A stretch of DNA of 64,000 bases from Nanobdellota archaeon (GTDB taxonomy: Archaea; Nanobdellota; Nanobdellia; Pacearchaeales; GW2011-AR1), in NCBI GenBank assembly GCA_038045385.1, contig JBBSYE010000008.1:11208-75207 (forward strand). The letters run 5' to 3'. Both the position numbers and the translations under genes were made by a program. Every line of letters starts with the position of its first letter. Position 1 is the first letter of the stretch. Under the pieces are notes generated by a model. That model saw only the letters and a list, made by a program, of their open reading frames with translations. It ran no database searches and was not told the origin of the DNA. Of this stretch, positions 21,982 through 47,121 are shown one piece after another.

Positions 21982-22017
21982 GGAATTATTATTGGAAAGA
22001 GGTTTATATGTATTGCG

Positions 22018-24348: not shown

Positions 24349-24371
24349 CCCCTTTGGCTCCAGCCAAAAAA

Positions 24372-24965: not shown

Positions 24966-24986
24966 ATTTGGTCTTAGTGCTAGAGC

Positions 24987-25083
24987 CATTCCAAAAGCAT
25001 AGCCGTTGTTGTCGTTCCAGTTGTTGCCATTGACGTTCAACCTGTTGCTGTCCGCGTTCCTGTTGGAATTCAAATCCGCAACC
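24987..25083 (-). repeat. DGR template repeat (TR)
   Basis: 97 nt, AAC-rich (reads N-S-N-R-N-A-D-S-N-R-L-N-V-N-G-N-N-W-N-D-N-N-G-Y). It ends 22 nt upstream of the RT ATG and aligns to 25322-25421. Confidence 0.85.
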
Positions 25084-25285
25084 GGACTATGTAGCCTTTT
25101 GCTCTAAAGTAAAATCACCAATGCTTCATTGTTCGCTCTGCTCATTTTCGTTCCTTCATCGCTACCAAATGTTGCATCTGCATTTCATACCCTTACGAGC
25201 ATAAGCAAAAGGCGTGTGGCCCTAGCGTGGTTTTATACCAAACTAAGACAAAATAATAGAGAAATCTCTTGTTAATAAGTGTTTA

Positions 25286-26068
25286 CTAATTTTTTTGCGC
25301 AGCCGCTTCGCGGTCATCTAACACCCCAAAAGCACAGCCGCCGTCGACGTCGTACCAGTAGTCGCCAACGACGTCCAACCTGCCGCTGCCCGCGCCCCTG
25401 TCGGAATCCAAACCCGCAACCTTTAATATAGATTCTTTAGTAGGCTCAAAGGCATACACATTAACTCCTCTTGGATAATTCGTTTTGCAAGCAATTAGTT
25501 TTAGAATTTTGGTCTTCGGAGCATGCTCTAAAATCCTTGCTAGTCCGCCTTCTAAAAAGACATCTTGTTCTTGGACTCCTCTTTCAAAAGAAGCGTAATC
25601 TGCGAAGCCAAAGTCTCTTAAATTTTCTGAATTTTCTACTAAATAGACTTGTCCTTTGCCTGTTTTTATTGGAGAGATTCCATTTAGATATTGTTTAAGA
25701 ATTGCTTCATTAGTTATTGGGTCGCCTTGCTCATCTTTCGGAGGATTAGCAAACACTCCTTCGTTTGTTCTTACTATCCATCCTGCTTGGAGCCATCTTG
25801 GGTCAAATATCTGAGGTTTAGCTCTATTTGCAAAATCGCATGATGCAACTAGAATAGATTCTCTTGTAGTTGGTGCTCTAAATGTTATTTCTTCTCCTGT
25901 TTCGGGATGTGAATAAAGTTTTTGCATTTCTTTAGCATTGTTACTAAAATACTCAGGACCGAAAGCTTTTGCACTTGCTATTCGGTTATGTTTTTTAATT
26001 AGTATTAGACTTCTTGGCGGAGCCTTTGGCTTTCCTGCTTCAATTATTTCGTATCCTGTTTCTGTCAT
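25286..26068 (-). CDS. DGR target (variable) protein
   Basis: 260 aa with no signal peptide. The C-terminus GLDSDRGAGSGRLDVVGDYWYDVDGGCAFGVL is encoded by the VR. Confidence 0.8.
   Translation of the reverse strand: MTETGYEIIEAGKPKAPPRSLILIKKHNRIASAKAFGPEYFSNNAKEMQKLYSHPETGEEITFRAPTTRESILVASCDFANRAKPQIFDPRWLQAGWIVRTNEGVFANPPKDEQGDPITNEAILKQYLNGISPIKTGKGQVYLVENSENLRDFGFADYASFERGVQEQDVFLEGGLARILEHAPKTKILKLIACKTNYPRGVNVYAFEPTKESILKVAGLDSDRGAGSGRLDVVGDYWYDVDGGCAFGVLDDREAAAQKN
25302..25314 (-). other. Hairpin 8 nt 3' of the VR (4-bp GC stem plus G-U, GAA loop on coding strand)
   Basis: The plus strand reads g-ccgc-ttc-gcgg-t. Its position is analogous to hairpins described downstream of the VR/IMH in characterised DGRs. 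Confidence 0.5.
25322..25421 (-). repeat. DGR variable repeat (VR) at the 3' end of the target gene
   Basis: Aligns to the TR with 20 substitutions, all at TR adenines, plus one extra GGC codon. It is GC-rich relative to its flanks. Confidence 0.85.
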
Positions 26069-30145: not shown

Positions 30146-30286
30146 GTGAAAACTAGAGTTTCATTTACTATTGAAGAGGATTTAGATAAGAAGCTTGATG
30201 CTAAACTCAAGGATACAAAATATAGAAATAAGTCTCATTTGATTGAAATTGCTCTACGTAAATTTATTGAGGAGAAAAATGATTAA
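30146..30286 (+). CDS. Ribbon-helix-helix (CopG-like) DNA-binding protein
   Basis: 46-aa ORF absent from the track: VKTRVSFTIEEDLDKKLDAKLKDTKYRNKSHLIEIALRKFIEEKND. It starts at GTG (start uncertain) and overlaps the next gene by 8 nt. Confidence 0.5.
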   Translation: MKTRVSFTIEEDLDKKLDAKLKDTKYRNKSHLIEIALRKFIEEKND

Positions 30287-31031
30287 AAGAGGACAAGTAG
30301 TTATTTTTGTTATAATTGCGCTTTTGCTTATCGGAGCTTTGCTTTTATTTTTTACTCTGCGAAATTCCCCAAGTGTAGCGATTGGGGAAGAATTTTCTGC
30401 ACAAGCTTTCTTAGGGCAATGTTTACGTCCTGAAATAGTGAAAAATGTTGATTCTCTTCTTGCTAAAGGCGGATTTGCTGAGCCGAATGATACAATTATT
30501 TACGATGATAAAAAAATAATTTATTTGTGTAAAAATATAAATTATTATGAAAAATGTATAATGCAACATCCAACTTATATTGATGAAGTCAGAAACGAAC
30601 TTGAGCGAGAACTTGGGGATGAGATTACGAATTGTTTTACTCTTTTGAACGATGAATTGAATAGAAGAGGATTTAATGTATCTGAAAAAGAACTTGAGTA
30701 TTCTGCTGTTCTAAAACAGGGCTCTGCTGAAATTTCTATTGACAAAGAACTTGTTTTATCAAAGGGAGAAACAAGCGAGAGTTTTGATAATTTTATTATT
30801 ATCGCAAAAAGCCCTATTTATGAGCTTCTTGATGCTGCTCAAGAAATAGCTCGGCAAGAGGGACAGTTCTGTTATTTTGAAAACCTTGGATATAGTTTAA
30901 TTTATCGGGATATAAGTATCGATAAAGATATCATGTCAGAAGCAACAAAGATTTATACACTTACCCATAAGGAAAGTGGGAAGAAACTGATGATTGCAAT
31001 AAGGGGGTGTGCTATTCCAGCCGGACTATGA
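30279..31031 (+). CDS. Pilin-like protein A1 (class III signal peptide plus ~220-aa globular domain)
   Basis: MIKRGQVVIFVIIALLLIGALLLFF. Paralogous to 34735-35496 (for example LGQCLRPE/MRSCLKSK, IIYLCKN/IQYLCYT, and a PAG ending). Confidence 0.6.
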   Translation: MIKRGQVVIFVIIALLLIGALLLFFTLRNSPSVAIGEEFSAQAFLGQCLRPEIVKNVDSLLAKGGFAEPNDTIIYDDKKIIYLCKNINYYEKCIMQHPTYIDEVRNELERELGDEITNCFTLLNDELNRRGFNVSEKELEYSAVLKQGSAEISIDKELVLSKGETSESFDNFIIIAKSPIYELLDAAQEIARQEGQFCYFENLGYSLIYRDISIDKDIMSEATKIYTLTHKESGKKLMIAIRGCAIPAGL

Positions 31032-34000
31032 AATTAACTGCTTTATTTGAGATTGCGCTTCTAGTTGTTGCGATTGCTTCTTTTTCTTATATCATTGGCC
31101 AGTATGATGCTCAAATAGGAGAGATAGAAGAAGAGGGGAAATTTGTTAAGGCCGCTAGAGGAATAATAATAGGTTTACTTGATGATAATTTAGTTTCTGC
31201 GGCAGATGGTATTTGGACTTGTGCGCAAGATAAACAGGGAAGTGTTTGTCAAGAATATCCTGCAATTAATTGTAATGCAAATTGCAACGTTCCATGTTTT
31301 ACTGGGAGAAGAGCTGACTTTGGGGATTGTCGCTTGGGAACTTGTATTGATAAAATAGAAGGAACTTGCTCTCCGCAGAGTCCAAAAAAACTTTGTGAAT
31401 CCGGAAGTGGGGTGTGGAAAGCTGATGAGACTTCTGAGCTTGTTGAATGTAGAAGAGGATGCTGTCTTATTGGGGATGGAGCTCAATTTTTAACCGAAAA
31501 AAGTTGTCAGACTTCACAGGCGAGATTGGGGCTTGCGGGAGAATTTAGGCCCGTTGATAATGAACTTCAATGCCTTGCTTTAGCAAATAGGGAAGTTGAG
31601 GGGGCGTGTGTATTTGGCTTAGAAGAAGATAGAAGTTGTAAATTCATTAAAAAGGGAAGCTGTCTTGATCAGGGAGGACAATTCTTTGAGAATAAGCTAT
31701 GTTCAAGTGCTGAATTGCAAACTGATTGTGAAAAACAAAAAAGAATTGGATGCTTTCCAGATAGAGATGAAGTCTATTGGTTTGATAGTTGTGGAAATCG
31801 CGAGAATATATATGATGCGAATAAAGATAAAAGTTGGAATAACGGTTTAATCTTGGCTAAAGGGGGCAGTTGTGAATTAGCCATAGGAAATAATTTGCTG
31901 GCTAGACAGGGAAGTTGTGGAAATTGTAATTATCTTTTAGGTAGTGTTTGTGGTGTGCCTAGAGCGCAGGATGAAAAGCCTTCTGCTGGAAATGCTGTAT
32001 GTCGCGACTTAAATTGTATTGATGAAAAGGGAAATAAGAGAAAACATGGAGAGGCCTGGTGTGCTTTTGAAAGTCAAATTGGGATAGAAGGAACTGGTAA
32101 TGCGCAGAGAAGTGTTGACGTGCCGGGAAGCACTCATTACAGAAAGGTTTGCTTTGAAGGGGAGATAAAAATTGAGCCTTGTCAGGGTTTTAGAAATGAA
32201 GTTTGCGTTGAATCTAGAGATGAAGTAGCTAAGTTTTCGCAGGCGCAATGTAGAGTTAATTTATGGCAGAAATGTCTTGAAGCAAATGGCGATAAGGATA
32301 AACTTGCTGATTGTGAGAAAACTACAGATTGTAAGATAAAAACTGTTGACTTAGGAAAAGGATTTAAGTTTGACAGATGCGTTCCTAAAACTCCACCTGG
32401 TTTTGATTTATTAGCTAACGCAGGAGGAGAAGTCTCAGAAGGTCTTTGTAGTCTTGGGACGCAGACTTGTACAGTAGTTTATCAGAAAAGCATTACCGGA
32501 AAATGGAAGTGTAAACAAAATTGCGATTGTAGAAAAGCAAAGTTTACGGAAACTATGAATAATCTTTGTATGAGTTTGGGAGATTGTGGGGCTAGTGTTA
32601 ATGTTGCTGGAGAATTTACTGATGCAGGTTATAGTGTTAAGAAAGCGCCTAAGTTATCGCAGGCTTACATTGCCGCGCTGAAAACGCTAGCGACGCCAAA
32701 AGAGGGGCAGAAAGTTGCGCCTTTATCTGAAGCGGAAATTACGGCGCTCTTTAATTTGGACCCTTCACAATCATCAAGTTCAAAGCAAAGTAAAATTGGC
32801 GAATATCTTGGATATCTTGGCCTTGGAGCTACAGGCACTGCTTATGCTGCGGGGGCAATTCTTGGTCCTTCTGTAGGGCCTGGAGCGATAAGTTATACCT
32901 TTGGTCAATTTGGCGCTTGGGGAAATGCTCTCGGTTCTGTCGCAGCTGGGGCTGCAATAGGTTTTGTCATTGGAAAAGCTCTTGGATTAGAGGGGGATGC
33001 TTTGACGGCAGTTGTTTTAGCGAGCGCAATTACGGCGGTAGTAGTCACGCAATTTTTCAATGTTGCTCTATTAAGTTTTGCATTCCTTGCTTGGGTTGGA
33101 GGTGTTGGATTAGTAGTAGGTATTGGTCTTTTACTTATTGGAGTTGGTAAAACTAAGAAAGTAAAAGTTGAATTTACATGTAATCCTTGGCAACCGCCTA
33201 AAGGAGGAGCAAGTTGTGATAAATGTGGAAAAGATGGATTACCTTGTAATAAATATCAATGTCAAAGTCTCGGGCAGTTATGTGAGTTTGTAAACGAAGG
33301 GACAAAAGATGAAGCCTGTATAAATGTAAATCCAAATGATGTTCTTTCGCCGATAATAAAGCCATATCAAGACGCGCTTATTGGAGGTTTTAGTTATACT
33401 AATATCGGAGATAATGGATATACTTTGAAAGGGTCTGGAAGCGATGGATGTGTTCCTGCATACCAACAAGTTCGCTTTGGAATTTCTCTAAATGAAAGAG
33501 GAGCTTGTAAGATTGATAGCGTGAGAAAAGTGAATTTTGATGCTATGGAATTTAATTTTGGAGGAAGTAGTTTGTATAAATTTAATCATACACAAATTCT
33601 ATTCCTTCCATCCCTTGATGCTCTTGCTCAAGCGCAAAGCGAGGGTGTTGTGCAAGATAATGAAGAGCCAATTGATACTGACTTGACAGTTGTTATTGAT
33701 CCTACAAAGAGAAATGATTTTACTATTTATGCAAGATGTCAAGATAAATCGGGAAATAGTAACGTGAATGAATATGCTATTAACTTCTGTATTTCTGCTG
33801 CGCCAGATAGAACTGCGCCAATAATAAATGAATTCATTCCTGCTTCGCCAGGATATATTGCTTTTGGAGGAACTGGAAGAAATGTTACATTTTTTGTTAA
33901 TGAGCCATCTGAATGTCGCTGGGCTAGCATTGATAGCGATTATGATTCAATGACTCAGCAAGCAATATGTAATAGCGACGTGGAAGATGTAACAATAAAA

Positions 34001-34696
34001 GGATTTGAATGCTCGACAAACTTGCCTGTTACGACTGATGTGAGTAATTACTATTTCAGATGTAAAGATCAACCTTGGCTGACTGGAAATGTGACTTTGG
34101 ATAATGGAAAGACTAGAAATAAGAATGCACAAAGCGCTCTTTATGTTTTAAGAAAGACTGCTATTCCATTGACTATTGTTTCTATAAATCCAAATAATAA
34201 AACGATAAGTTCTGGCGGAATTCCGATTGTTGTTGACTTGGAAGTTCAAACTGCTGGAGGGCAAGGACCAAGATATTGCGAATTTAGTAGTGCGGGGCAG
34301 TTTGTAACCTTCTTTGAAAATTCTGGAGATAGACATAAACAGCCAGGATTACAATTTATTGAACAGAGAGCTTATGATATCCCTATTAGATGTAAAGATG
34401 AGGCAGGGAATGTTGCTAGTTCTTCTGCGAAATTTACAACATATATTGATAATCAAGGGCCAAGGATAACTAGGGCCTTTAGACAAAATGGATTGACTAT
34501 TGTGACTAATGAAAATGCAAGATGCGCTTATAGCTTGAGAGATTGCACATTCTTATTTTCAAATGGAACTTTGCTGACTGGAAATGAACTTGTGCATAGC
34601 ACTTCATTTAATATTACGGCGACACATTACGTTTCTTGCAGAGATAGATTTGATAATCCTGGAGCTTGTATAGCAGTCAGAGCAGGAGAATTTTGA
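31028..34696 (+). CDS. Giant Cys-rich surface protein B1 (fused form): N-terminal Cys-rich ectodomain, Gly/Ala-rich multi-TM core, C-terminal Cys knot plus four Ig/HYR-like repeats
   Basis: The ATG at 31028 overlaps the A1 stop (ATGA). The N-terminal half is paralogous to 35493-37034 and the C-terminal half to 38830-41283. RC(K/R)D..GN motifs recur. Confidence 0.7.
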   Translation: MKLTALFEIALLVVAIASFSYIIGQYDAQIGEIEEEGKFVKAARGIIIGLLDDNLVSAADGIWTCAQDKQGSVCQEYPAINCNANCNVPCFTGRRADFGDCRLGTCIDKIEGTCSPQSPKKLCESGSGVWKADETSELVECRRGCCLIGDGAQFLTEKSCQTSQARLGLAGEFRPVDNELQCLALANREVEGACVFGLEEDRSCKFIKKGSCLDQGGQFFENKLCSSAELQTDCEKQKRIGCFPDRDEVYWFDSCGNRENIYDANKDKSWNNGLILAKGGSCELAIGNNLLARQGSCGNCNYLLGSVCGVPRAQDEKPSAGNAVCRDLNCIDEKGNKRKHGEAWCAFESQIGIEGTGNAQRSVDVPGSTHYRKVCFEGEIKIEPCQGFRNEVCVESRDEVAKFSQAQCRVNLWQKCLEANGDKDKLADCEKTTDCKIKTVDLGKGFKFDRCVPKTPPGFDLLANAGGEVSEGLCSLGTQTCTVVYQKSITGKWKCKQNCDCRKAKFTETMNNLCMSLGDCGASVNVAGEFTDAGYSVKKAPKLSQAYIAALKTLATPKEGQKVAPLSEAEITALFNLDPSQSSSSKQSKIGEYLGYLGLGATGTAYAAGAILGPSVGPGAISYTFGQFGAWGNALGSVAAGAAIGFVIGKALGLEGDALTAVVLASAITAVVVTQFFNVALLSFAFLAWVGGVGLVVGIGLLLIGVGKTKKVKVEFTCNPWQPPKGGASCDKCGKDGLPCNKYQCQSLGQLCEFVNEGTKDEACINVNPNDVLSPIIKPYQDALIGGFSYTNIGDNGYTLKGSGSDGCVPAYQQVRFGISLNERGACKIDSVRKVNFDAMEFNFGGSSLYKFNHTQILFLPSLDALAQAQSEGVVQDNEEPIDTDLTVVIDPTKRNDFTIYARCQDKSGNSNVNEYAINFCISAAPDRTAPIINEFIPASPGYIAFGGTGRNVTFFVNEPSECRWASIDSDYDSMTQQAICNSDVEDVTIKGFECSTNLPVTTDVSNYYFRCKDQPWLTGNVTLDNGKTRNKNAQSALYVLRKTAIPLTIVSINPNNKTISSGGIPIVVDLEVQTAGGQGPRYCEFSSAGQFVTFFENSGDRHKQPGLQFIEQRAYDIPIRCKDEAGNVASSSAKFTTYIDNQGPRITRAFRQNGLTIVTNENARCAYSLRDCTFLFSNGTLLTGNELVHSTSFNITATHYVSCRDRFDNPGACIAVRAGEF

Positions 34697-34734
34697 TGCG
34701 TAACTATTATAAACATTTGTCAGCTTCTAGAAAG

Positions 34735-35496
34735 ATGAAAAGAGGACAGGTAGCAATTTTTGTGATAGTTGCTATTGTGCTTGTAGGATTTGTTCTAGCT
34801 CTTTTCTTTTTACCGCAAGCTCGTGTTCTGCTACCTGGGGGAGAATCTCAAGATCCTGGAAGTTTTATGCGTTCATGTTTGAAGTCTAAATTAGAAGAAG
34901 GATTGGGGAAGCTGGCTGAACAGGGAGGCTCTTTGAATCCGTCTCCTTCTACTTCTTATCAAGGAAAAGAAATTCAATATCTATGTTATACTGATGAAAA
35001 TTATCTTCCTTGTATTGTGCAGAAACCGCTTCTTGTAAAAAGTTTTCAACAAGAACTTGAGAATTATGTTCGTTCAGATGTTAAAAGATGTGTCTCTGAT
35101 TTAAAAAGCGATTATGAATCTAGAGGTTACACTGTAAGCTCGAGCAGTGGAGATTTTAACGTAAGCATAATTCCAGGAAGAATATCTCTTGAACTTGAAG
35201 AGGGAATTACGATAAGCAAGGAAACTACGCAAACTTTTAAGTCATTTTCAGCGACGCAAAGCAGCGAGCTTTACAACTTATTATTGATTGCTACGAGTAT
35301 AGTGGATTTTGAATCTAAACTTGGAGATTCAGAAACAACTTTATATATACAATATTACCCTGAATTAAAGATAGAGAAAATGAGAAGAGATGCTGATAAA
35401 ATTTATACTTTAACTAACGTGAATAGTGGAGAGAGCTTTACTTTTGCTACACGAAGTTTAGTCTGGCCTGCGGGCTTTGGAGGAGAGTTATCGTGA
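34735..35496 (+). CDS. Pilin-like protein A2 (class III signal peptide), paralog of A1
   Basis: The ATG at 34735 gives MKRGQVAIFVIVAIVLVGFVLALFF. A TATA-like ctattataaa lies about 26 nt upstream. The stop overlaps the next GTG start. Confidence 0.6.
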   Translation: MKRGQVAIFVIVAIVLVGFVLALFFLPQARVLLPGGESQDPGSFMRSCLKSKLEEGLGKLAEQGGSLNPSPSTSYQGKEIQYLCYTDENYLPCIVQKPLLVKSFQQELENYVRSDVKRCVSDLKSDYESRGYTVSSSSGDFNVSIIPGRISLELEEGITISKETTQTFKSFSATQSSELYNLLLIATSIVDFESKLGDSETTLYIQYYPELKIEKMRRDADKIYTLTNVNSGESFTFATRSLVWPAGFGGELS

Positions 35497-37034
35497 AGAA
35501 ATTTATTTTTGCTTTGGGGTTTTTTACTTTGTTTATTTTTACTTTTAGTCTTTCTTCAGCCTTGACTGCAACGGTTTGTTGTGAGAAGACTAAACTTGGA
35601 GCTTTTTGTCAGAATGCTCCTGCTGAACAATGTGATTCTGCTTTTCAACAAGTGCAGACTAGTTGCGATTCAACAAGCTTTTGCAAGGCAGGAACTTGCT
35701 ATGACTCTAGCGAGGGAACTTGCTTGGATAATACTCCACAAAGAGTATGCAATGCTAATGGCGGAGTTTGGAGTGCAGAGGCGCCAGCTCAATGTAACCT
35801 TGGATGTTGCGTTCTTGGAGACCAAGCTGCTTTTGTTTCGCTTGTGAGATGCAAAAGATTATCTTCTTTTCTTGGATTACAAACTAATTTTAATAGTGGA
35901 ATTGGAAATGAAGTTTCTTGTATAGCTTCAGTTCAAGCACAAGATAAAGGGGCGTGTGTTTATGAGTTTGAATTTGAGAAAACCTGCAAGTTTACGACGA
36001 GAGCTGAATGTTCTGCAAGTACAGGAACAAGTAATGGAACTACTTCTGGAGGAAATTTTTATAAGGATAAATTATGCTCGGCTGAAGAACTTGGAACTAT
36101 TTGTGGACCTTCACAGAAGACTACTTGCGCTCCTGGAAAAGATGAAGTCTATTTTGTTGATACTTGCGGAAATCCTGCGAATATTTATGACTCAAGTAAG
36201 GCAAGCGATAAAGAATATTGGACTAATGTAAAGCAAAAGAGTGAGAGTTGTGCTCCAAATAGCGCGAATGCTGGAAGTTCAAGCTGCGGAAATTGTAATT
36301 ATCTTCTTGGAAGTTTTTGTAGAAGTGAAAGTGCCTCTAATGGGAGAGCTAGAATTGGGAACAATATTTGTGCTGATTTGAATTGTGTTGATGAAAATAA
36401 TGTGGAAAGAAAACATGGAGAGTCTTGGTGTTTGAATGATGATAAGCAGACTGGAAAAGCAGCAAATAGTGTTGGAAGTAGATTCTTTAGAAGGATATGT
36501 ATGAATGGGGAAGTCGTTACCGAACCTTGCGGAGATTTTAGAGCGCAAGAATGTGTTCAAGATGAGATTGAAACTTCTCTTGGTAAATTCTCACAGTCTG
36601 CTTGTCGTGTTAATAGATGGCAAGATTGCTTAGCTCAAACTGAAAAGCTAGATTGTGAAAATACGGATAGAAGAGACTGTATATGGAAAGCTGGGTTGGA
36701 ATTGGCGAATGAAACTATAAATGGCGTTTGTGTTCCGGCTAATACTCCTGGACTGAATTTTTGGAATAGCGAAGAGACAAAGACAATTTGTGGACAGGGA
36801 AATAAAGCTTGCGTTGTGACTTATGAAAAAGGATTATTTGGGGGAGAGGAGTGTGTTGATAATTGTGAATGTCTTGAAACTGGATGGGAACAGAATTATG
36901 CTAACCTTTGTTCGTCTTTGGGAGATTGCGGGCCTAAATTGAATTGGGCTGGAAGTAAGGGATTCAAAGAAGGATACAAGAAGCAAATTGGCGGGGAAAA
37001 GCTCTTGAAAGAGCTTGGACTTGCTGAAGAATAG
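35493..37034 (+). CDS. Cys-rich secreted protein B2N, paralog of the N-terminal half of B1
   Basis: Has a signal peptide. Blocks shared with B1 include GCCVLGDQAAF, SSCGNCNYLLGSFC, CADLNCVDENNVERKHGESWC, FSQSACRVNRWQDC and LCSSLGDCGP. Confidence 0.65.
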   Translation: MKKFIFALGFFTLFIFTFSLSSALTATVCCEKTKLGAFCQNAPAEQCDSAFQQVQTSCDSTSFCKAGTCYDSSEGTCLDNTPQRVCNANGGVWSAEAPAQCNLGCCVLGDQAAFVSLVRCKRLSSFLGLQTNFNSGIGNEVSCIASVQAQDKGACVYEFEFEKTCKFTTRAECSASTGTSNGTTSGGNFYKDKLCSAEELGTICGPSQKTTCAPGKDEVYFVDTCGNPANIYDSSKASDKEYWTNVKQKSESCAPNSANAGSSSCGNCNYLLGSFCRSESASNGRARIGNNICADLNCVDENNVERKHGESWCLNDDKQTGKAANSVGSRFFRRICMNGEVVTEPCGDFRAQECVQDEIETSLGKFSQSACRVNRWQDCLAQTEKLDCENTDRRDCIWKAGLELANETINGVCVPANTPGLNFWNSEETKTICGQGNKACVVTYEKGLFGGEECVDNCECLETGWEQNYANLCSSLGDCGPKLNWAGSKGFKEGYKKQIGGEKLLKELGLAEE

Positions 37035-37077
37035 CGAAAAAAGAAAAGTTTATATACCCCTCGTAAGTAGTGTTTTT

Positions 37078-37641
37078 ATGAGTAAGTTTAGTAGAAGTGC
37101 TAAAGTAGGAATTTCTGGATTATTGTTAGGCGGTGCTGTATCTTTGCAAGGTTGCGGAGAAATTATCGCTGGGTTGCTTATTTCAGAGGCCATTAATGGC
37201 CAAACTAGAGCATTAAATCAGAATGCTGCTCAAATGGCTAATACTCCTCAAGGTAACGTGCCAGCTTCAAACTATAATCAGAATTATCCAGTAGGAGTTC
37301 CTTCTCAAGCTTCTTTTGTTTGTAACTCTGTTTCTGATGAAAATAGGAATAATTTATTTGATAAATGGGAGATTTCTGGCGAAAAAAATAGTTTTTCTGC
37401 TCATGAAAATGTGAACTTGGGACTTAATGTCTCCGGACGTCAAGGACAAAATTTAATTGTTCGTATTTTTGATGTTTCAACTTTTAATAACGTAGATTCT
37501 ACAAGAATTGGTAGTGTAATTACTAATCCTTCGGCTTTTGTATATACTTTGGAATCTGGTAAGTTAGGGAAGGGCAAATATAAGGCAGAATGGTATGCAG
37601 ATAATAGAGAAATTTGTAGCTCTGTATTTTCAATAAATTAA
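37078..37641 (+). CDS. Lipobox-type secreted protein L1
   Basis: MSKFSRSAKVGISGLLLGGAVSLQGC: signal peptide ending in L-Q-G-C. A TATA-like gtttatata lies about 25 nt upstream. Confidence 0.55.
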   Translation: MSKFSRSAKVGISGLLLGGAVSLQGCGEIIAGLLISEAINGQTRALNQNAAQMANTPQGNVPASNYNQNYPVGVPSQASFVCNSVSDENRNNLFDKWEISGEKNSFSAHENVNLGLNVSGRQGQNLIVRIFDVSTFNNVDSTRIGSVITNPSAFVYTLESGKLGKGKYKAEWYADNREICSSVFSIN

Positions 37642-37662
37642 TTTTTCTTTCGTCTAAATCGG

Positions 37663-37674
37663 AAAATATAAATA
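37663..37674 (+). promoter_or_regulatory. TATA-box-like promoter element for L2 (leaderless)
   Basis: aaaatataaata lies about 25-28 nt upstream of the ATG at 37696. The surrounding roughly 37 nt are near-identical to 38331-38366. Confidence 0.4.
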
Positions 37675-37695
37675 CTATTAATTAACTTTAAAGTG

Positions 37696-38304
37696 ATGAA
37701 ATTAGCTAATAGATTGGTCGCTGGGAGTGTTGGATTAGCTGGGATGTTGAATCTGACTGGATGTATCCCGTTTATGGCCGGATATATTGGTGGTTCGCTA
37801 GCAAACCCTAGAAATCCTGTTTATGTTCCAGTTCCTACGCCTGCTCCGCAACAGAATCCAACTGGATTTTCCATTAAGAATGGTTATTTTAGAGCGGAAG
37901 GAGAAACTCCTTTTAAAAAATGGATTGATGGTGCTAACGGGGGTTTGATTAATGGAATTATGGAAGGAAATGAATTTGTTAATTTTTATCCCGAAGTTGA
38001 AATTAATACGCAAGTTCAAGTCTATATTACGGCTCATTTAATTAACGCTAAAGGATCTACTCTTAATGGAGAGATGAGAACAGCAGAGGGCATCTTAGCG
38101 TATACTGCTTCTCCTTCTTTTGTTGGAGAGGATGGTGAAGTTCTCTTGCCTTGGCCAATTCAATTAAAAAAAATTGTGGAAGAGAGTCCTTCGGAGTCAT
38201 ATTCAACAAGAATGTATATGAACGGTAAATCTGTTGAAGAATTTAGATTTAAGAATACTAATTTTCAACAATTTCAACAAAGCAGTTTGCGTTTTGGTAA
38301 TTAA
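37696..38304 (+). CDS. Lipobox-type secreted protein L2
   Basis: MKLANRLVAGSVGLAGMLNLTGC: signal peptide ending in L-T-G-C. Confidence 0.55.
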   Translation: MKLANRLVAGSVGLAGMLNLTGCIPFMAGYIGGSLANPRNPVYVPVPTPAPQQNPTGFSIKNGYFRAEGETPFKKWIDGANGGLINGIMEGNEFVNFYPEVEINTQVQVYITAHLINAKGSTLNGEMRTAEGILAYTASPSFVGEDGEVLLPWPIQLKKIVEESPSESYSTRMYMNGKSVEEFRFKNTNFQQFQQSSLRFGN

Positions 38305-38332
38305 TAGTAAGAGAATATTTGGTCCTAAATAG

Positions 38333-38345
38333 AAAAATATAAATA
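38333..38345 (+). promoter_or_regulatory. TATA-box-like promoter element for L3 (leaderless)
   Basis: aaaaatataaata lies about 27 nt upstream of the ATG at 38367, within a duplicated intergenic block shared with L2. Confidence 0.4.
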
Positions 38346-38366
38346 CTATCAATTCACTATAAAGTA

Positions 38367-38735
38367 ATGAAAAAGTATAATAGGTTCGCAATAGGAAGTC
38401 TTGGATTAGCTGGAGTTTTAGCTATACAAGGTTGTGGACCTCTTCTTAATGCTGGTGGGCAGTCTGCAATTTATGCAGGAAACGCTGGAGTTGGTATTCC
38501 CTTATCTGCTTTAGGACAAGGCATTGGCGCGATTGAGGCAGGTAGAGCTTCTAGTTCAAATGTTAATGTGAATAATAATTTTAATGGAAATAGTCAATCG
38601 GATAATCGCAATAAAAATTATAGTGATGTTCCATATAAAATGCCTCCAAATCCTTATGAGCCTAAATATAGTGATGTTCCGTATAAGATGCCTGATAATA
38701 ATCCTTATTATAAAAATGCAGATCATAATCCCTGA
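38367..38735 (+). CDS. Lipobox-type secreted protein L3 with YSDVPYKMP repeat
   Basis: MKKYNRFAIGSLGLAGVLAIQGC: signal peptide ending in I-Q-G-C. The tail is Asn/Pro/Tyr-rich. Confidence 0.55.
   Translation: MKKYNRFAIGSLGLAGVLAIQGCGPLLNAGGQSAIYAGNAGVGIPLSALGQGIGAIEAGRASSSNVNVNNNFNGNSQSDNRNKNYSDVPYKMPPNPYEPKYSDVPYKMPDNNPYYKNADHNP
38619..38693 (+). repeat. Two copies of a 27-nt direct repeat, 48 nt apart
   Basis: tatagtgatgttccatataaaatgcct at 38619-38645 versus tatagtgatgttccgtataagatgcct at 38667-38693 (2 mismatches). It encodes YSDVPYKMP. Confidence 0.8.
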
Positions 38736-38829
38736 CGTGCTCTGAGAATAATCTCTATAAAGATTAAAAATAAGATATTCTTGTTCCGCTACACAATATG
38801 TTTATAAGTATGTGTTCTTTTTTAGTTTT

Positions 38830-41283
38830 ATGCTAAAGAGGGCGAATAATTTTGTTGTTTGTGCAACTTTATTTCAAGTAGCGCTTATCGTTTCATTTTC
38901 TATTGCGATTAGTTTCTTAATTGCACAAACAATTCCTTCTGTAATAGCAAATACTAGTCCAGCAGTAAGTGTAGTTCCTGTTAGTCATGTTCCAACTTAT
39001 ACCACTTCTTCAGGTCCGTATGTCTTTGACATTGATTTTGGAAAGGGATCTGTTCCAGTAAAATGGACAGGCACTAATCCAGAGACTGGCATTGCTAATG
39101 GAATTCTTGCTGATGGAACTCCTACTTCATGGAAATCTATTCCCAACTCTGAAATAGCACAGGCAGATATTACCAATAAGTTTTCTGCAGGACAACTTGA
39201 TAATTGGGGTAAAACCACTTTAATTGGTGGAAAGTCTGTTGCTAATGTAGATTTTTTAGGAGATCCTAATAAATTTGGACTAGTTAGAGATGGACAACTT
39301 ACCCCAGAAGGAATAGAAATCGCTGAAAAGGCTGGAATTAAAAACCCTGCAATTGACCCTACAGGAGCCATTGTTGGAAACGGAGAAAGTTATTCATATT
39401 CTCTTTTGGGATATCAAATAACTAGTAACTTCTTTTTGGGTCACCTTATTGAAGGGGCTTCGTGGGCATTGTTTGTTGTTGGGGCTATTCAGTTAGTTGG
39501 AGGAATTGCAGGACTTGATCCAAAATTAACTAATACATTAAGTATTGCTGCGGCTTCTGGAATAATTGGGGGTAAGGCGATTTACGGACTTTTTGGACAA
39601 GCAACTCCTGGTTTAAGTGGAAGCGGTGGAATTGCTGGGGCAGGAGCCCAAGTATTAAGTCCGTTGCAAGCAGGCCTCATCGGCATTGGCATCGCAGCTA
39701 TCGTCTTCGTATTATTATATAAAGATGAAAAGAAAAAAGTTGTTACGCTACAATGCTTGCCGTGGGAAGCGCCACTTGGCGGATCTAAATGCGAGCAATG
39801 TAACGGAGATCCTCTAAAGCCGTGTTCTGAATATCGTTGTAAATCTCTTGGGCAGGCGTGCGAGATTGTTAATAAGGGAACTGCTGAAGAGAGATGTGTT
39901 TGGGTTGCGCGTAATGACGTGAGTAGCGCTACAATTGAACCTTGGGCTGAATCGCTTAAACCGTTGAATCAAGGCTTGAGATTTACTCCTGATAGCACAA
40001 TAAGACCGCCAAATAGAGGAGTTAAGATTGTTAGCAATAAGGCTGGGGGATGCGTTATGCCTTTCACTCCACTTGAATTTGGAATAAGAACTAATGAGCC
40101 GACTCAATGTAAGATAGATACCGAGAGACCGAATGGAACTACTGCTTTTGATAGTATGCAATTTTACTTTGGAGATAGTAATTATTATGCATATAATCAT
40201 ACGCAAACTATGAGATTGCCTTCACCGAATGCTATTGCTGATGAGGCAGGATTAGAGCTTGAGAATAATGGGGCGTTTAATTATTTTGTAAGATGTAGAG
40301 ATGCTAATGGTAACGAAAACGTTGATGATTTTGTAATAAACTTCTGCGTTGATAAAAGTCCTGATACTACTCCTCCTGTGATTGAGTCTACTTCGATAAA
40401 TAGCGGAAGTCCCGTTGGTGCGGGAGTGCAGAATTTATCTTTGGGAGTTTATGTTAACGAACCTAGCCAATGTAAATGGAGTATTCAAGATAAGAACTAT
40501 AATGATATGGAGAATACTATGAGTTGTGTAAGCAAGATTTATCAGCAGAATGCAAAACAGTTGTATCCTTGTGTGGCTAACTTGAATGGGATTAAAGATA
40601 GAGCGACGAATACTTTCTATTTCAGATGTAAAGATCAACCCTTGAAGAATGATAGTGAAAGAAATGTTAATAGCGAGAGTTATGTATTTATTCTAAAAGG
40701 CAGTCAGGCCCTAAATATTATTAAGACTTCTCCTAATTCGACGATAACTGGAAGTACTGATGTTGTGCCTGTTAATTTGAGCGTTGAAACTAGCAATGGG
40801 GCTGAAGAAGGCAAGGCAATATGTTACTTTAGTCCAACTGGAGTTGAGGGAAGTTATGTTTTGATGTTCCAGACTAATAGCTATAAACACACACAGATAT
40901 TATCGTTGACTTCTGGAAATTACAATTATAGATTTAGATGTGTTGATGCTGGAGGAAATGCTGCTGAATCAAGTTCGAGCTTCAACGTCTTGACGGATAG
41001 GCAGGCGCCTTTTGTCACTAGAGTTTATCGTGAGGGAACTGATGCTCTAAAAGTTGTAACTAATGAAGACGCTGAATGCACTTACTCGACTACGAGCTGT
41101 AACTATAATTTTGCTGAAGGTCTTAAATTTATTTATAATCCTGTAACGACTAAGAATCAGCATTTTGCAAGATGGGAATCTAGCAAGACTTACTATATCA
41201 AATGTAAAGATGGATATGATAATCAGCCTGCACCAAATGCTTGTAGCGTTATCGCTAGTGCAACTAATGTTAAACAGAAATAG
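38830..41283 (+). CDS. Cys-rich membrane/surface protein B2C, paralog of the C-terminal half of B1
   Basis: The ATG at 38830 has a TATA-like tttataag about 26 nt upstream. It has a Gly/Ala-rich TM core, then LQCLPWEAPLGGSKCEQCNGDPLKPCSEYRCKSLGQACE, then four RC(K/R)D..GN repeats as in B1. Confidence 0.7.
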   Translation: MLKRANNFVVCATLFQVALIVSFSIAISFLIAQTIPSVIANTSPAVSVVPVSHVPTYTTSSGPYVFDIDFGKGSVPVKWTGTNPETGIANGILADGTPTSWKSIPNSEIAQADITNKFSAGQLDNWGKTTLIGGKSVANVDFLGDPNKFGLVRDGQLTPEGIEIAEKAGIKNPAIDPTGAIVGNGESYSYSLLGYQITSNFFLGHLIEGASWALFVVGAIQLVGGIAGLDPKLTNTLSIAAASGIIGGKAIYGLFGQATPGLSGSGGIAGAGAQVLSPLQAGLIGIGIAAIVFVLLYKDEKKKVVTLQCLPWEAPLGGSKCEQCNGDPLKPCSEYRCKSLGQACEIVNKGTAEERCVWVARNDVSSATIEPWAESLKPLNQGLRFTPDSTIRPPNRGVKIVSNKAGGCVMPFTPLEFGIRTNEPTQCKIDTERPNGTTAFDSMQFYFGDSNYYAYNHTQTMRLPSPNAIADEAGLELENNGAFNYFVRCRDANGNENVDDFVINFCVDKSPDTTPPVIESTSINSGSPVGAGVQNLSLGVYVNEPSQCKWSIQDKNYNDMENTMSCVSKIYQQNAKQLYPCVANLNGIKDRATNTFYFRCKDQPLKNDSERNVNSESYVFILKGSQALNIIKTSPNSTITGSTDVVPVNLSVETSNGAEEGKAICYFSPTGVEGSYVLMFQTNSYKHTQILSLTSGNYNYRFRCVDAGGNAAESSSSFNVLTDRQAPFVTRVYREGTDALKVVTNEDAECTYSTTSCNYNFAEGLKFIYNPVTTKNQHFARWESSKTYYIKCKDGYDNQPAPNACSVIASATNVKQK

Positions 41284-43206: not shown

Positions 43207-43706
43207 AAAGAGGGCAAGAAGAGATAATTGGATTTGTTGCCATAGTAATTTTGCTTGCAGTAATTTTTCTTGTTTTTCTTGTGATATCATTTAGAAGCCC
43301 GGTTGAGGATATAAGAGAAAATAGTGAGGCGTATTACTTCTTATCAAGTGTCATGGAAGTTACAAGTAACTGCACTCGAGGACTTGATAATCAAGCTCTG
43401 AAGATAGCGGAACTTGCAAGTTCTTGTAGGCAAAATGATAAGTGTAACAATGACTTGGGCTCATGTGATGTGCTGAACATGACGTTAAATTATCTTGTTC
43501 AAGAAGGATTCAGACCTGGAGAAGATAGCGTGACTAAAGGGTATGTTTTAAAGACTAGATATGTTAGTAATTTAAGTTCTGGGCAAACTGGACAGGATAT
43601 TTCATCTATTAGCTCCGGAGTGTGTGGAAATTCTTTTAGCGGGGCTAGTTATTCAGTGCCAGATTATCCTGGGGTAATTACTTTTGAGTTAAAACTTTGC
43701 TCTTAA
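43203..43706 (+). CDS. Pilin-like protein (class III signal peptide)
   Basis: MKRGQEEIIGFVAIVILLAVIFLVFLV. The mature part contains several Cys. Confidence 0.55.
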   Translation: MKRGQEEIIGFVAIVILLAVIFLVFLVISFRSPVEDIRENSEAYYFLSSVMEVTSNCTRGLDNQALKIAELASSCRQNDKCNNDLGSCDVLNMTLNYLVQEGFRPGEDSVTKGYVLKTRYVSNLSSGQTGQDISSISSGVCGNSFSGASYSVPDYPGVITFELKLCS

Positions 43707-44059
43707 ATTTTAATTTCTATATGTACTGTATCTGCTAAAATTGAAGGTTTAAGACGAGTTCTTTTTCCAGTGCCTTCTTTTTTTAACTCTATAAATCCGA
43801 AGCGTTCTAGAAGTTTTACATCTTCGTATACTGACTTAAAGTTTCTTGAGACTAATTTAGCTAGCGCATAAACTGAAGATGGCTTCTTTGCTTTTATTGT
43901 ATGTAGTATTCTCGCTTTCTCATTTGAAAGTAGTTTCCTTAATGCTGAAAGTCCTTCGAAATCATATGGACTTTCATTGCCGAACATCTTGAAGAATGTT
44001 GAAAATGTTCCTTTGTCGTCGGTGATTGTTATCTCTCTAACTTTAGTTTTTGTGGCCAT
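43703..44059 (-). CDS. Winged-helix transcriptional regulator (ArsR/MarR-like, COG4190-type)
   Basis: ARILHTIKAKKPSSVYALAKLVSRNFKSVYEDVKLLERFGFIELKKEG is an HTH plus wing. The gene is convergent with the pilin-like operon and divergent from the S-layer gene. Confidence 0.55.
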   Translation of the reverse strand: MATKTKVREITITDDKGTFSTFFKMFGNESPYDFEGLSALRKLLSNEKARILHTIKAKKPSSVYALAKLVSRNFKSVYEDVKLLERFGFIELKKEGTGKRTRLKPSILADTVHIEIKI

Positions 44060-44427: not shown

Positions 44428-47121
44428 ATGTTTAAATTTAAAAAAATTGCGTCTGTTATGGCATCAACTGCCTTAATGTTATCAACTGTTGGACTAGCAC
44501 TTGCTGCAAATTATCCTCAACCTTTCGAGAGTGCGGGTACTGCTGCAGTAGTCTGGGGAACCAATGCTGATAGCTCTGACATCGCTGCTGCTGCTAGTAT
44601 TGCAACTGGTTTGCAATCTGCACTAGGTGATGGAGGAAGTACAACGACGACAACTATAACTGGCGAAGCATTCCCATTATTTACTAGTGGAACTGAAATT
44701 TATTTGAACGATACACTTAACGTTGCTAGAACAACTGTAACTGATGATAACCTTCCTACAATCTTGGAGGATGGAGACTTTTCAGGTAATGTTGATGCGG
44801 AATACACACAAACTATTGTGATTCCAAGTAATAGCCGTGTTTTGTTCGGACAACAGCCTAGTAGTAATGATGATCCTACGGTTTTTGTAAATCTTGGAAC
44901 TAGCTCAACTGCTATTGTTTATAATACAACAATAACTTTTGATAGAGCGGTTAACTTGACTCATGCAGATTCTGAAGGAGAGGCATTAAACTTGTTTGGA
45001 ACTGAATGGACAATCGGAGCAGACACTGATGGAGATACAATTGTATTGTATCAATCTTCAGAGCGTATAGCTCTTTCCTTAGGCGGAAGTAGTCCTAATC
45101 CTTCTGCAACTGTTGAAGTTGAAGGCAATAGTTATACTATTGAACTTGTTTCTGCTAGCGATTCTGATGCAACTATTAGGGTAACTGATAGTAGTGGAGG
45201 TACGCAAAGCAAAGAAATCAATGAGGATGATTCAAAGCAAATAAATGGAATAGAAGTTTCTGTTTCATATGCTGATGAATCTGATGCGACTGGAACTGTT
45301 TCTGCTGAAGTTACTGTAGGTAGTCAAAAGATTATCTTGGAAACTGGGCAGGCGGTTAAAGTTGGTTCTGATGAAGAATCTCTTGATGGAACTCTTGTTA
45401 GCTTTAATGGTGGAACTGTTGGAGCAATGACTAAATTAGTTATCCAAACTTTCTCAGATGATACTGATGAAGATGCTCTTATTACTGGAGGCACTTTTGC
45501 AGACCCTACATGGGGATCTTTTATCATGCAATTCACAGAGACTAGCTCTGATTTGGATGATGAAGGAAGAGATATGATTACTGTTTCAGCTAATGGTGAC
45601 GATGAAATGAAAATTTCATTCACGGACCATCGAAGTGATACAAATTCATTCGTTTGGCTTAATAACCAATCTCAAACTATGAGGCTTGCTAATAGCAATG
45701 ATGGTAAGGAACTTCTAAAAGTTGCAGAAGGAACTGCTTTAAACAGGTCTATGTTCGCAGTTGTTGGAAATCAGGATGAGGGAACTTTGGTTCGCTTGAA
45801 GACTGTTTCCAATAGTAGCGGAGATACTAATGACGATATTGTTTTTGAGAATGTCTTTGACACATCAACAACATATAAAGCGTCTATAACTAGCGAGGGA
45901 GCTGGAACTATTGATATAGGTGGTCAAACATTTGCTGTATCATATGTTGGAGCTTCAACTTCTCCACAAGACATAGTTGTCAGGTTAAATTATCCTGATA
46001 CTACTGACTCTGGAAATATTGTTCTTTATCCTACGATAGAGACAGACAAGGGGGCCAAGGTATCATTCTATGAACCTTTGACCATGAACTTGACTGCAGG
46101 ATCTACAAGCGCGACTGTCGGATCTGTTAATGCGGCTATGCAGAATTATACTGTTGTTAATTCTGGAACGACAAATATCACTGGATTATTATTCCCTGAT
46201 GGAGATAACTATAACACAGCAACTGCTGTGTCATACTACCTTGGAGGGGGAGTTAACGCTAACGGTAACGTTACAGTGGGTGGCGTTTCTTTGAATGCGA
46301 CAATAAACTCTACACAGGGCCCAACAAGCACGACAATCACTTCAGGTAGACTTACCTATAACGTGACTATTTCGGGTCATAACACAGTTACTGTGTTCTT
46401 ACTCGATCCAGTTAATGGAGGAAATATTGTTACTCCTTCTGTTGTTATTTGGGAAGAAACTGAAGATAGAACTGACAATGAAGAAGCTCTTGTAGTTACA
46501 CTTACTGGTGGAGGAACAAGTGCATCTGAAACAGAGGTTGATACCGTTGTTTCAACTGCTACTACCCCTGGAACCACAACTGGAAATGGAAATAGCTATA
46601 CCACATTAGAATCTAACGATGATTTGTCTCAAATTTTGACCTTGTATGGAACACTTGTCACACTTGACAATCCTACAAGCGGACAAAAGAGTGCGAAATT
46701 ATCATATCCTGACGATCAAGTTCAGGCAATGGTATACTTCACTGAGGCAACTGCTTCGGTAGGTGATGGTGCTACAAACACTGGCGTTGTTACAATCAGA
46801 GACTCGGAAGCAAGCACATATTCCTCAAGGAATATGGTTGTTGTTGGAGGAAGCTGCGTAAACACTGTAGCTGCTCAATTATTGGGCTCAAGTTGCGGAT
46901 CAAGCTTTACAAGCAGTACTGGAGCAGGTTCTGGTGAGTATATCATCGAGACCTTCACTTCACCTTTCTCAAGCAGCAAAGTTGCTGTACTTGTGGCTGG
47001 TTACAATGCTGATGACACTGAGAATGCCGCTACATACCTAAGAACACAGACTGTTGACACAACTGTCGGCAAGAAGTACAAAGGTACAACCGGAACTCAG
47101 GCGATACTTCAAACTGTTTAA
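44428..47121 (+). CDS. Probable S-layer protein
   Basis: Signal peptide ...STVGLALA. 897 aa, Thr/Ser/Asn/Gly-rich, with many N-x-S/T sequons. C-terminal VVVGGSCVNTVAAQLLG and VAVLVAGYNADDTENAATYL match archaeal S-layer domains. Confidence 0.6.
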   Translation: MFKFKKIASVMASTALMLSTVGLALAANYPQPFESAGTAAVVWGTNADSSDIAAAASIATGLQSALGDGGSTTTTTITGEAFPLFTSGTEIYLNDTLNVARTTVTDDNLPTILEDGDFSGNVDAEYTQTIVIPSNSRVLFGQQPSSNDDPTVFVNLGTSSTAIVYNTTITFDRAVNLTHADSEGEALNLFGTEWTIGADTDGDTIVLYQSSERIALSLGGSSPNPSATVEVEGNSYTIELVSASDSDATIRVTDSSGGTQSKEINEDDSKQINGIEVSVSYADESDATGTVSAEVTVGSQKIILETGQAVKVGSDEESLDGTLVSFNGGTVGAMTKLVIQTFSDDTDEDALITGGTFADPTWGSFIMQFTETSSDLDDEGRDMITVSANGDDEMKISFTDHRSDTNSFVWLNNQSQTMRLANSNDGKELLKVAEGTALNRSMFAVVGNQDEGTLVRLKTVSNSSGDTNDDIVFENVFDTSTTYKASITSEGAGTIDIGGQTFAVSYVGASTSPQDIVVRLNYPDTTDSGNIVLYPTIETDKGAKVSFYEPLTMNLTAGSTSATVGSVNAAMQNYTVVNSGTTNITGLLFPDGDNYNTATAVSYYLGGGVNANGNVTVGGVSLNATINSTQGPTSTTITSGRLTYNVTISGHNTVTVFLLDPVNGGNIVTPSVVIWEETEDRTDNEEALVVTLTGGGTSASETEVDTVVSTATTPGTTTGNGNSYTTLESNDDLSQILTLYGTLVTLDNPTSGQKSAKLSYPDDQVQAMVYFTEATASVGDGATNTGVVTIRDSEASTYSSRNMVVVGGSCVNTVAAQLLGSSCGSSFTSSTGAGSGEYIIETFTSPFSSSKVAVLVAGYNADDTENAATYLRTQTVDTTVGKKYKGTTGTQAILQTV

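Follow-up and report, generated by a model that had tools for sequence, protein, structure and literature searches.

Gene pairs related by fusion or fission have been used, reportedly by Marcotte and by Enright in 1999, to infer protein-protein association. A comparable relationship is found in secretion, where type Va (autotransporters) and type Vb (two-partner secretion) are the same functional unit made as one chain or as two. Large surface proteins with multiple immunoglobulin-like (Ig-like) domains include adhesins and stalks of the Big_13 type, the GhpA grappling hook and receptor ectodomains. Archaeal type IV pilus (T4P) loci that include large proteins predicted to be adhesins have also been described (Makarova et al. 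2016, PMC4858521). Here, we describe a cluster of ~14 kb that resembles each of these systems in part. It lies in a stretch of 64,000 nucleotides (nt) from a Nanobdellota archaeon (contig JBBSYE010000008.1, positions 11,208 to 75,207), referred to as the window, and includes two copies of a giant cysteine-rich envelope protein, the first encoded by a single gene, B1, and the second by two genes, B2N and B2C. The source is a very small DPANN archaeon of symbiotic type (Pacearchaeota) and low GC content (~36%), and PCNA, an archaeal primase and FtsZ are encoded.

We consider it fairly likely that a single uncharacterised envelope protein exists here in two versions, B1 and B2N+B2C, which are ancient paralogues, in a cluster found throughout Pacearchaeota-type DPANN archaea, and that the head and the base of this protein are parts of one structure. 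The last point is drawn from other lineages, where the copy-2 gene occupies the corresponding place on the chromosome and encodes both as one chain. The genes of the two copies in the window are as follows.

A1: 30243-31031, + strand. Prepilin-like partner of copy 1, with a class-III-type signal (KRG/QVVIFVII...); the stop codon overlaps the B1 ATG at 31028 (ATGA).
B1: 31028-34696 (GTG start at 31007), + strand. Fused giant protein, 1222 amino acids (aa) from the ATG or 1229 aa from the GTG; N-terminal transmembrane helix (TM0) ~31040-31108, cysteine-rich head (Nd) ~31139-32611, glycine-rich hydrophobic core 32804-33154, cysteine knot and Ig-like stalk (Cd) 33176-34693.
A2: 34666-35496, + strand. 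Prepilin-like partner of copy 2; likely ATG at 34696, with a 1-nt overlap with the B1 stop codon.
B2N: 35493-37034, + strand. Stand-alone cysteine-rich head, 513 aa, with a Sec-type signal peptide at aa 1-~25 (...SLSSA/LTATVCCEKT).
L1: 37015-37641, + strand. Lipobox-like protein (...VSLQGC); probable ATG at 37081.
L2: 37693-38304, + strand. Lipobox-like protein (LNLTGC).
L3: 38367-38735, + strand. Lipobox-like protein (AIQGC); of the three, it is the copy still recognised in the closest relative, L001.
B2C: 38812-41283 (NCBI start at 38830), + strand. Membrane base and stalk, 823 aa; TM0 ~38857-38940, cysteine-free variable linker ~38950-39429, glycine-rich core 39430-39720, cysteine knot and Ig-like domains 39754-41280.

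The window proteins are listed at NCBI as 'Nanoarchaeota archaeon' (tags AABW79_04625 and AABW79_04645) and, compared with the database entries, the first-start open reading frame (ORF) calls for B1, A2, L1 and B2C are probably 7-22 codons too long. Start and stop codons overlap at A1/B1 (ATGA, 31007-31031), B1/A2 (1 nt, 34694-34696) and A2/B2N (GTGA, 35493-35496), which suggests translational coupling along the A1-B1-A2-B2N operon.

As in other Rosetta-stone pairs, two proteins each match a non-overlapping part of one chain, both in the paralogue B1 and in orthologues found at the same locus. However, the pair is nested here, as the base protein retains its own version of the N-terminal helix that comes ahead of the head in fused chains, and the state has changed more than once in one lineage. 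The likeness to type Va and Vb secretion is an analogy, namely that an exported head is joined to a membrane module or is made separately and encoded adjacent to it, but there is no homology, outer membrane or beta-barrel in this case, and the membrane module is helical and archaeal. T4P minor-pilin sets with a large non-pilin adhesin of the PilY1 type likewise have small proteins with class III signals encoded beside very large cysteine-rich surface proteins. The large proteins of this cluster differ in that they are predicted to be integral membrane proteins (TM0 and core) and have no DUF2341/PilY1 domain, and searches of the window yielded neither a pilin family nor an ATPase or platform gene. 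A string of beta-sandwiches is predicted for the C-terminal 500 aa, as in the multi-Ig adhesins, but this is a generic fold similarity with Pfam scores below threshold, and the head, knot and membrane module are without known relatives.

Homology of the fused and split copies

Window proteins were compared pairwise using BLASTP, and hhalign was used for profile-profile comparisons. Residues 45-535 of B1 align with residues 3-487 of B2N (37% identity, E 8e-93), and residues 600-1224 of B1 align with residues 208-814 of B2C (32% identity, E 2e-89), such that B2N and B2C match separate, non-overlapping parts of B1. A preliminary description, made from the sequence of the window, had aligned B2N with the first ~520 residues of B1, and all four motif pairs that it quoted are contained in the BLASTP alignment. 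It had also placed the end of B2N just before the hydrophobic core of B1, with B2C supplying an equivalent core and the knot. This is the arrangement found, as the alignment of B1 with B2C takes in the core (B1 nt 32804-33154; B2C nt 39430-39720) and the knot (CNPWQPP/CLPWEAP). The C parts are also related in profile comparison (hhalign E 2e-133). Taken separately, the core region did not give a significant hhalign match, though the pairwise alignment passes through it, and homology of the core is best regarded as positional rather than proven.

Cysteine columns common to B1 and copy 2 number 41/43 in the N part and 21/21 in the C part. A likeness merely of cysteine spacing or composition is ruled out, as the identity at non-cysteine positions is 35% and BLAST E values were still 2e-44 (N part) and 4e-61 (C part) after all cysteines had been masked to X; the low-complexity cysteine spacing named as a possible refutation in the preliminary description does not account for the similarity. 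A1 and A2 are also paralogous (31% identity, E 7e-41), and hence the duplicated unit was A+B.

The equation of B1 with B2N plus B2C, put forward earlier, holds for the two homologous halves. However, it does not hold end to end, as residues 1-206 of B2C, consisting of an N-terminal transmembrane helix and a cysteine-free linker, are unaccounted for. The TM0 logos of B1 and B2C agree position by position (consensus ~F-E-I-F-L-L-V/I-x-A/S-S-F-A-F-A/S-Y/F-I-I/L-G-E-T/S-N) and the profile match between them has an hhalign Prob of 98% and E of 5.5e-14, compared with a Prob of 46-53% for signal-peptide controls. A TM0 hidden Markov model (HMM), trained on B1 alone, was used to score the N-termini of other proteins, and the numbers with at least 10 bits were as follows.

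B2C: 94/117
Other fused proteins: 40/58
B2N: 2/120
Other stand-alone heads: 6/78

At a cut-off of at least 12 bits, the 2852 ORFs of 83 loci (the ORFs of 80 loci from a GTDB scan of one genome per species, and of 3 found earlier) yielded B1 and B2C, plus only two others. From this distribution, TM0 goes with whichever chain bears the core and stalk. Free heads have ordinary Sec-type signal peptides. The anatomy is TM0, head, core, knot and stalk in B1; TM0, linker, core, knot and stalk in B2C; and signal peptide and head in B2N.

The B2C linker varies from 75 to 380 aa among species, and no domains were found within long linkers using Pfam. The possibility that the linker is a degenerate head was rejected, as comparison with the head gave an hhalign Prob of 0.1% and local alignments no better than those with shuffled sequences. 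A relic of the B2N signal peptide in the B1 spacer between TM0 and head (aa 36-69) was also considered but is unsupported; the two align in pairwise BLAST but the profile Prob is 6%.

Fused and split states in related archaea

The same split was found in all 80 related genomes of the GTDB scan in which the contig is long enough (83 loci in all). Statements on gene order refer to surveyed loci in which the contig extends far enough. In these, the order is constant, namely (primase, PCNA) A1, fused B1, A2, B2N, gap, B2C, P1-P4, regulator and S-layer gene, and no split B1 was seen among the surveyed loci. Relatives of B2N were present in 232 species genomes. Using B1 as the query, there were 448 matches, and the best 120 were all of fused length (1199-1386 aa). 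The B2N query yielded 1633 matches, with the best 120 all stand-alone (493-565 aa), and the best 120 matches to B2C were also all stand-alone (565-992 aa).

B1-type and B2-type sequences form a clean bipartition, recovered in 30/30 bootstraps, in neighbour-joining (NJ) trees of both the head (n=142) and the stalk (n=115); all trees were midpoint-rooted or paralogue-rooted. Median identities for B1-B1, B2-B2 and B1-B2 comparisons are 44, 58 and 36%, respectively, in the N part, and 40, 51 and 34% in the C part.

That copy 2 is an assembly artefact, a possibility allowed for in the preliminary description, or a decaying pseudogene broken by an inserted cassette, can be given practically no credence. 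Nothing beyond the unusual gene structure speaks for it, and the same split recurs in independent assemblies (every long-enough related locus), both ORFs are intact, each has a proper N-terminal signal, and B2N and B2C are more conserved than B1. The constant gene order, together with the 30/30 bootstraps for the B1 and B2 clades, excludes misassembly, pseudogenisation and a recent event. Thus, the split is ancient and fixed across the lineage, and not the product of a recent event in this genome.

A profile search with B2N, which covered 1.84 billion representative proteins, found 1619 clusters, 871 of them at E ≤ 1e-30, and these were a mix of stand-alone heads and fused proteins. At least 10 of the fused clusters are B2-type in both halves, with the N part nearer to B2N and the C part nearer to B2C. 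For example, the N part of the fused protein P0363 scores 479 bits to B2N vs 268 to B1, and its C part scores 530 to B2C vs 283 to B1. In other Pacearchaeota (L084, L085, L088 and L089), the copy-2 gene is a single ORF encoding 1227-1351 aa, and it is located between A2 and P1 in L084, L088 and L089 and behind A in L085. The order in L084 (Ca. Pacearchaeota) is primase, PCNA, A1, B1 (1149 aa), A2, fused B2 (1287 aa), P1-P4, regulator and S-layer gene, and L088 and L089 are arranged in the same way. The fused composites at the orthologous locus are P0363, P0365, P0370 and P0386. P0363 is collinear with the split pair of L073, with identities of 65% (B2N/head) and 57% (B2C/base), and is only ~50% identical to other fused B2 proteins. 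As it is closer to a split pair than to other fused proteins, there has been more than one change between the fused and split states. The preliminary description had concluded from the paralogue B1 that the two halves belong together. This conclusion is supported, on better evidence, as an orthologous fused copy 2 at the same locus is a stronger Rosetta stone for head and base than the paralogue.

In L085 (4598-13726), both copies are fused and the heads are 62% identical to each other, compared with ~36% for B1 and B2 elsewhere, a sign of gene conversion or re-duplication. The two L085 modules are separated by an inserted ParE/MazE toxin-antitoxin pair. L066 includes two A1-B1 modules ahead of A2-B2N.

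No internal relic of TM0 was found in the fused copy-2 proteins and, on this basis, neither a simple read-through fusion nor a simple stop-codon fission was retained as the mechanism. Either direction must have involved duplication or relocation of the 5' piece that encodes TM0. We give an even chance to a fused ancestral gene and fission of copy 2, in which a second copy of this 5' piece (start codon and TM0) arose behind the head, or the whole gene was duplicated and the duplicates lost complementary parts, after which TM0 of the head decayed to a plain signal peptide. Copy 1 is fused in every surveyed genome and, in the head tree limited to known contexts, the fused copy 2 of L085 and L084 branch before all of the split ones. 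In addition, the fused copy-2 proteins show a good TM0 (14-16 bits) at the N-terminus without a relic further in, which fits chains that had never been split, and the signal peptide of the L074 B2N aligns with TM0 of the fused P0365 (KKIS...F..FAF). However, a single basal group of the stalk tree contains both fused and split copy 2, the sister pair L073 (split) and L088 (fused) needs a second state change, and fusions are generally commoner than fissions. Rooting of the trees is also by midpoint or paralogue, no single-copy outgroup having been found; every context examined carries both copies.

The opposite polarity, with separate genes for a secreted head and a base in the ancestor and several independent fusions of adjacent genes giving rise to B1 and to the fused copy 2, we rate as possible rather than probable. 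In the larger head tree (n=179), the fused copy-2 types are scattered among many split ones, requiring ~8 fusions vs ~16 fissions by parsimony. The genes abut at 1-5 nt in the basal group, so a small indel could fuse them, and some fused copy-2 proteins (P0392 and P0408) have N-termini that are signal-peptide-like, without TM0. However, read-through would give an N-terminal signal peptide and an internal TM0, and most fused proteins are the opposite of this. Repeated convergent gain of a 20-residue TM0 motif is also unlikely.

The preliminary description had proposed a fission, with insertion of a cassette of lipobox genes, or a fusion, at some point after the duplication. The choice of direction is that between the two polarities above, but the event was not recent, given the 30/30 bootstraps for the B1 and B2 clades in both halves, and it is not tied to the cassette.

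Lipobox-like genes and rates of evolution

The three lipobox genes reported in the gap of copy 2 are present. L1, L2 and L3 each include a signal peptide and a lipobox-like LQGC, LTGC or IQGC at residues ~23-47, in agreement with the pattern [LVI][ASTVIQ][GAS]C, and lipid attachment is putative. A lipobox-like protein is found in 43/48 loci that have a gap ORF, and a single BLAST-linked family accounts for 43/53 such proteins, L1-L3 included. Where genes are present in the gap, they number from one to about ten, and a single L gene is the usual state. An 89-nt direct repeat (37654-37742 vs 38325-38413, 78% identity) takes in the start of the L2 and L3 coding sequences (first codons) and the A/T-rich DNA upstream of each, which suggests tandem duplication of a lipobox gene with its own promoter, and the three copies would therefore represent a local tandem expansion.

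Five loci lack any gene between B2N and B2C, which are separated by 1-76 nt. The two genes there are often not in the same frame, and both have a start and an N-terminal signal of their own. Three of these five loci make up the first-diverging B2 subclade. Because these loci are split without a gap gene, the split is independent of the L cassette, and the proposal that fission accompanied insertion of L1-L3 was not borne out. L is a separate and widely conserved addition, probably a later one, that is tripled here. A three-way Rosetta stone with L as the third piece of B1 was rejected, as a 42-member alignment of L compared with the B1, B2C and B2N profiles gave an hhalign Prob of ≤ 5%.

Identities to the closest relative, L001, differ across the locus, as listed here.

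PCNA: 90%
B2N: 80%
B2C core and stalk: 79%
B1 head: 71%
B1 stalk: 62%
B2C linker: 47%
S-layer protein: 47%
L3: 38%

On these values, B2N is the slowest-evolving envelope protein of the locus. The S-layer protein is among its fastest-evolving genes. The divergence of B1 and B2 had been taken to suggest antigenic or host-specificity variation, and we regard this explanation as very improbable. Though the S-layer protein, the B2C linker and L evolve fast (47%, 47% and at most 38% to the closest relative), and B1 evolves faster than B2, both paralogues are conserved as orthologues across the lineage, and no envelope component is better conserved than the B2 head, which speaks against antigenic variation. 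The B genes are also without cassettes or template repeats.

A diversity-generating retroelement (DGR) is located 6 kb upstream, at 23878-26068 of the window on the minus strand. The template repeat (25002-25083) and variable repeat (25340-25421) are 82 nt long and 79% identical, and 17/17 mismatches fall on adenines of the template, as read on the coding strand. An ORF at 25286-26068 (260 aa, no Pfam match) contains the variable repeat at its 3' end, an Rfam RT-16 RNA (25086-25248, 88.8 bits) is located between the two repeats, and the reverse transcriptase appears to be split over two ORFs, 24372-25073 and 23878-24348. The DGR block is absent from this place in the relatives L001 and L002. 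A role for the DGR as diversifier of the B genes was rejected, as this is the only template/variable pair, its target is another ORF, and no further template-like repeat was found in 24900-47200.

The proposed envelope structure and its cluster

All of the cysteines of B2N (43/43) are conserved at ≥90% in 76 orthologues. No match to the fold of an AlphaFold2 (AF2) model of the head was found in the PDB or in the BFVD viral structure library. The AF2 model of B2C (predicted local distance difference test score, pLDDT, 81) has the TM0 helix first, then a linker modelled with low confidence, three core helices and a string of beta-sandwiches, and residues 400-815 (pLDDT mostly >85) are predicted to be beta-sandwiches in tandem. 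Foldseek matches of the stalk to multi-Ig ectodomains (E about 1e-13 to 4e-13), with the GhpA grappling hook and receptor ectodomains among the proteins matched, are generic, at ~10% identity and a TM score of 0.15-0.2. Big_13 scores 17.7 bits in B2C and 21-26 bits in orthologues, below the Pfam cut-off of 27. For the head and membrane module, no relative was found in Pfam (above threshold), in NCBIfam or among PDB sequences, and a literature search found nothing specific on such a family in DPANN or Pacearchaeota. B1 orthologues are named 'Yip1 family protein', 'glycine zipper family protein' or 'DMT family transporter, partial' at NCBI. These names probably reflect only the hydrophobic glycine-rich core, and no Pfam or NCBIfam model supports them here.

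In the arrangement that we propose, TM0 and the glycine-rich helical core would form one helical membrane module. The disulfide-rich head (Nd) would sit in an extracellular loop between TM0 and core in B1 and in the fused B2, and Cd would consist of the cysteine knot and then four to five Ig-like domains. An external stalk would be consistent with its fold, its invariant cysteines and Sec export of the homologous head. For copy 2 here and in most relatives, the head would be secreted separately, using the Sec signal peptide of B2N, and the variable linker of B2C would take its place. Most likely, the head would re-associate non-covalently with the base outside the membrane, with B2N docking on B2C. 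L may tether the free head, or help to hold or assemble it.

It is unlikely, though possible, that the products became independent after separation, with B2N a free secreted factor and B2C a head-less membrane protein that do not associate physically. B2N lacks an anchor and starts with a signal peptide that looks cleavable, and the variable B2C linker has no similarity to the head. B2N and B2C are also unlinked in some genomes (L003, L026 and AUJ84), though a tight complex does not require linkage. However, in 3/3 cases that could be checked via NCBI locus tags (IIA87, Q7S27 and AUJ84), the unlinked B2C is still present elsewhere in the genome. The order A2-B2N-(L)-B2C is kept in 53 loci, B2N and the B2C core and stalk are equally slow to evolve, and sister lineages have fused orthologues at 57-65% identity. 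This synteny and the equal rates are suggestive of an interaction between B2N and B2C.

Several further points join the unlinked genes in weighing against docking of B2N on B2C at the surface, or against the surface structure proposed for the wider cluster. The AF2 model of the B2N head is of moderate confidence (pLDDT 74, predicted TM score 0.48). The number of core spans is ambiguous: the core is modelled with three helices and a lysine-rich stretch after the last and, together with TM0, this would put the stalk on the cytoplasmic side, unless one of the glycine-rich helices is not membrane-spanning. The prepilin-like nature of A1, A2 and P1-P4 is judged from the N-terminal motif only; the pattern [KR]G/Q(F/L) with a hydrophobic N-terminus, in line with the usual layout of class III (prepilin) signals in archaea (basic residues, a G/A cleavage site and ~20 hydrophobic residues), was seen in 60/65 A1, 72/80 A2 and 20-22/22 orthologues of each of P1-P4. 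No pilin or archaellin family in Pfam or NCBIfam was matched by A or P at E ≤ 0.1, for either the window proteins or the L084 and L087 orthologues. The ~30 window ORFs scanned did not include a prepilin peptidase, a platform protein or an assembly ATPase, and the remaining window ORFs are all too short to encode the ATPase.

The remaining genes of the cluster are as follows.

P1-P4: 41320-41793, 41790-42722, 42682-43206 and 43203-43706, + strand. Prepilin-like genes, found after B2C in every complete locus.
Regulator: 43703-44059, - strand. Small, divergently placed regulator of the HVO_A0114 family (PF25212, E 2e-18), conserved in position and highly conserved in sequence (86% identity to the closest relative).
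S-layer gene: 44428-47121, + strand. Putative S-layer protein with a signal peptide, Thr/Ser-rich; orthologues match S_layer_C.

Given a prepilin-like partner for each copy, with four more prepilin-like genes and the S-layer gene downstream, the most likely product of the cluster is a surface structure, which may serve in attachment or be part of the envelope.

Two genes at 20788-23835 of the window, on the minus strand, encode proteins of 605 and 397 aa with only a weak Cep192_D6/Ig-like match. Both are conserved beside the primase gene in relatives, where the L001/L002 counterparts have 602/590 and 399/397 aa, and may belong to the same envelope neighbourhood. Separately, an unusual fusion at 12150-14273 joins a class II aminoacyl-tRNA synthetase (tRNA-synt_2 and OB anticodon domain) to a C-terminal HD domain.

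Pacearchaeota are abundant and uncultivated and have minimal genomes, and ~14 kb is a large share of the small genomes typical of them. To our knowledge, the mode by which they attach to hosts or surfaces is not known. A tentative, and more doubtful, extension of our interpretation is that the 14-kb cluster is an undescribed lineage-wide surface machine of Pacearchaeota, possibly an organelle for host or surface contact in these ultra-small archaea. Its parts would be two giant disulfide-rich membrane proteins, each with a prepilin-like partner, together with a lipoprotein and another four prepilin-like proteins, encoded next to the S-layer gene. A head with a new fold would be displayed on a helical membrane module that is likewise new (TM0 and a glycine-zipper core). 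On this reading, natural toggling between a head in cis and a head in trans would show that the head docks on the base after export. The series of fused and split forms predicts which proteins assemble, namely the head B2N with the base B2C, possibly through L, and defines domain boundaries for expression or structural work. It also provides a clean natural example of a gene that changed more than once between a one-chain and a two-chain form, each change accompanied by relocation of a membrane helix.

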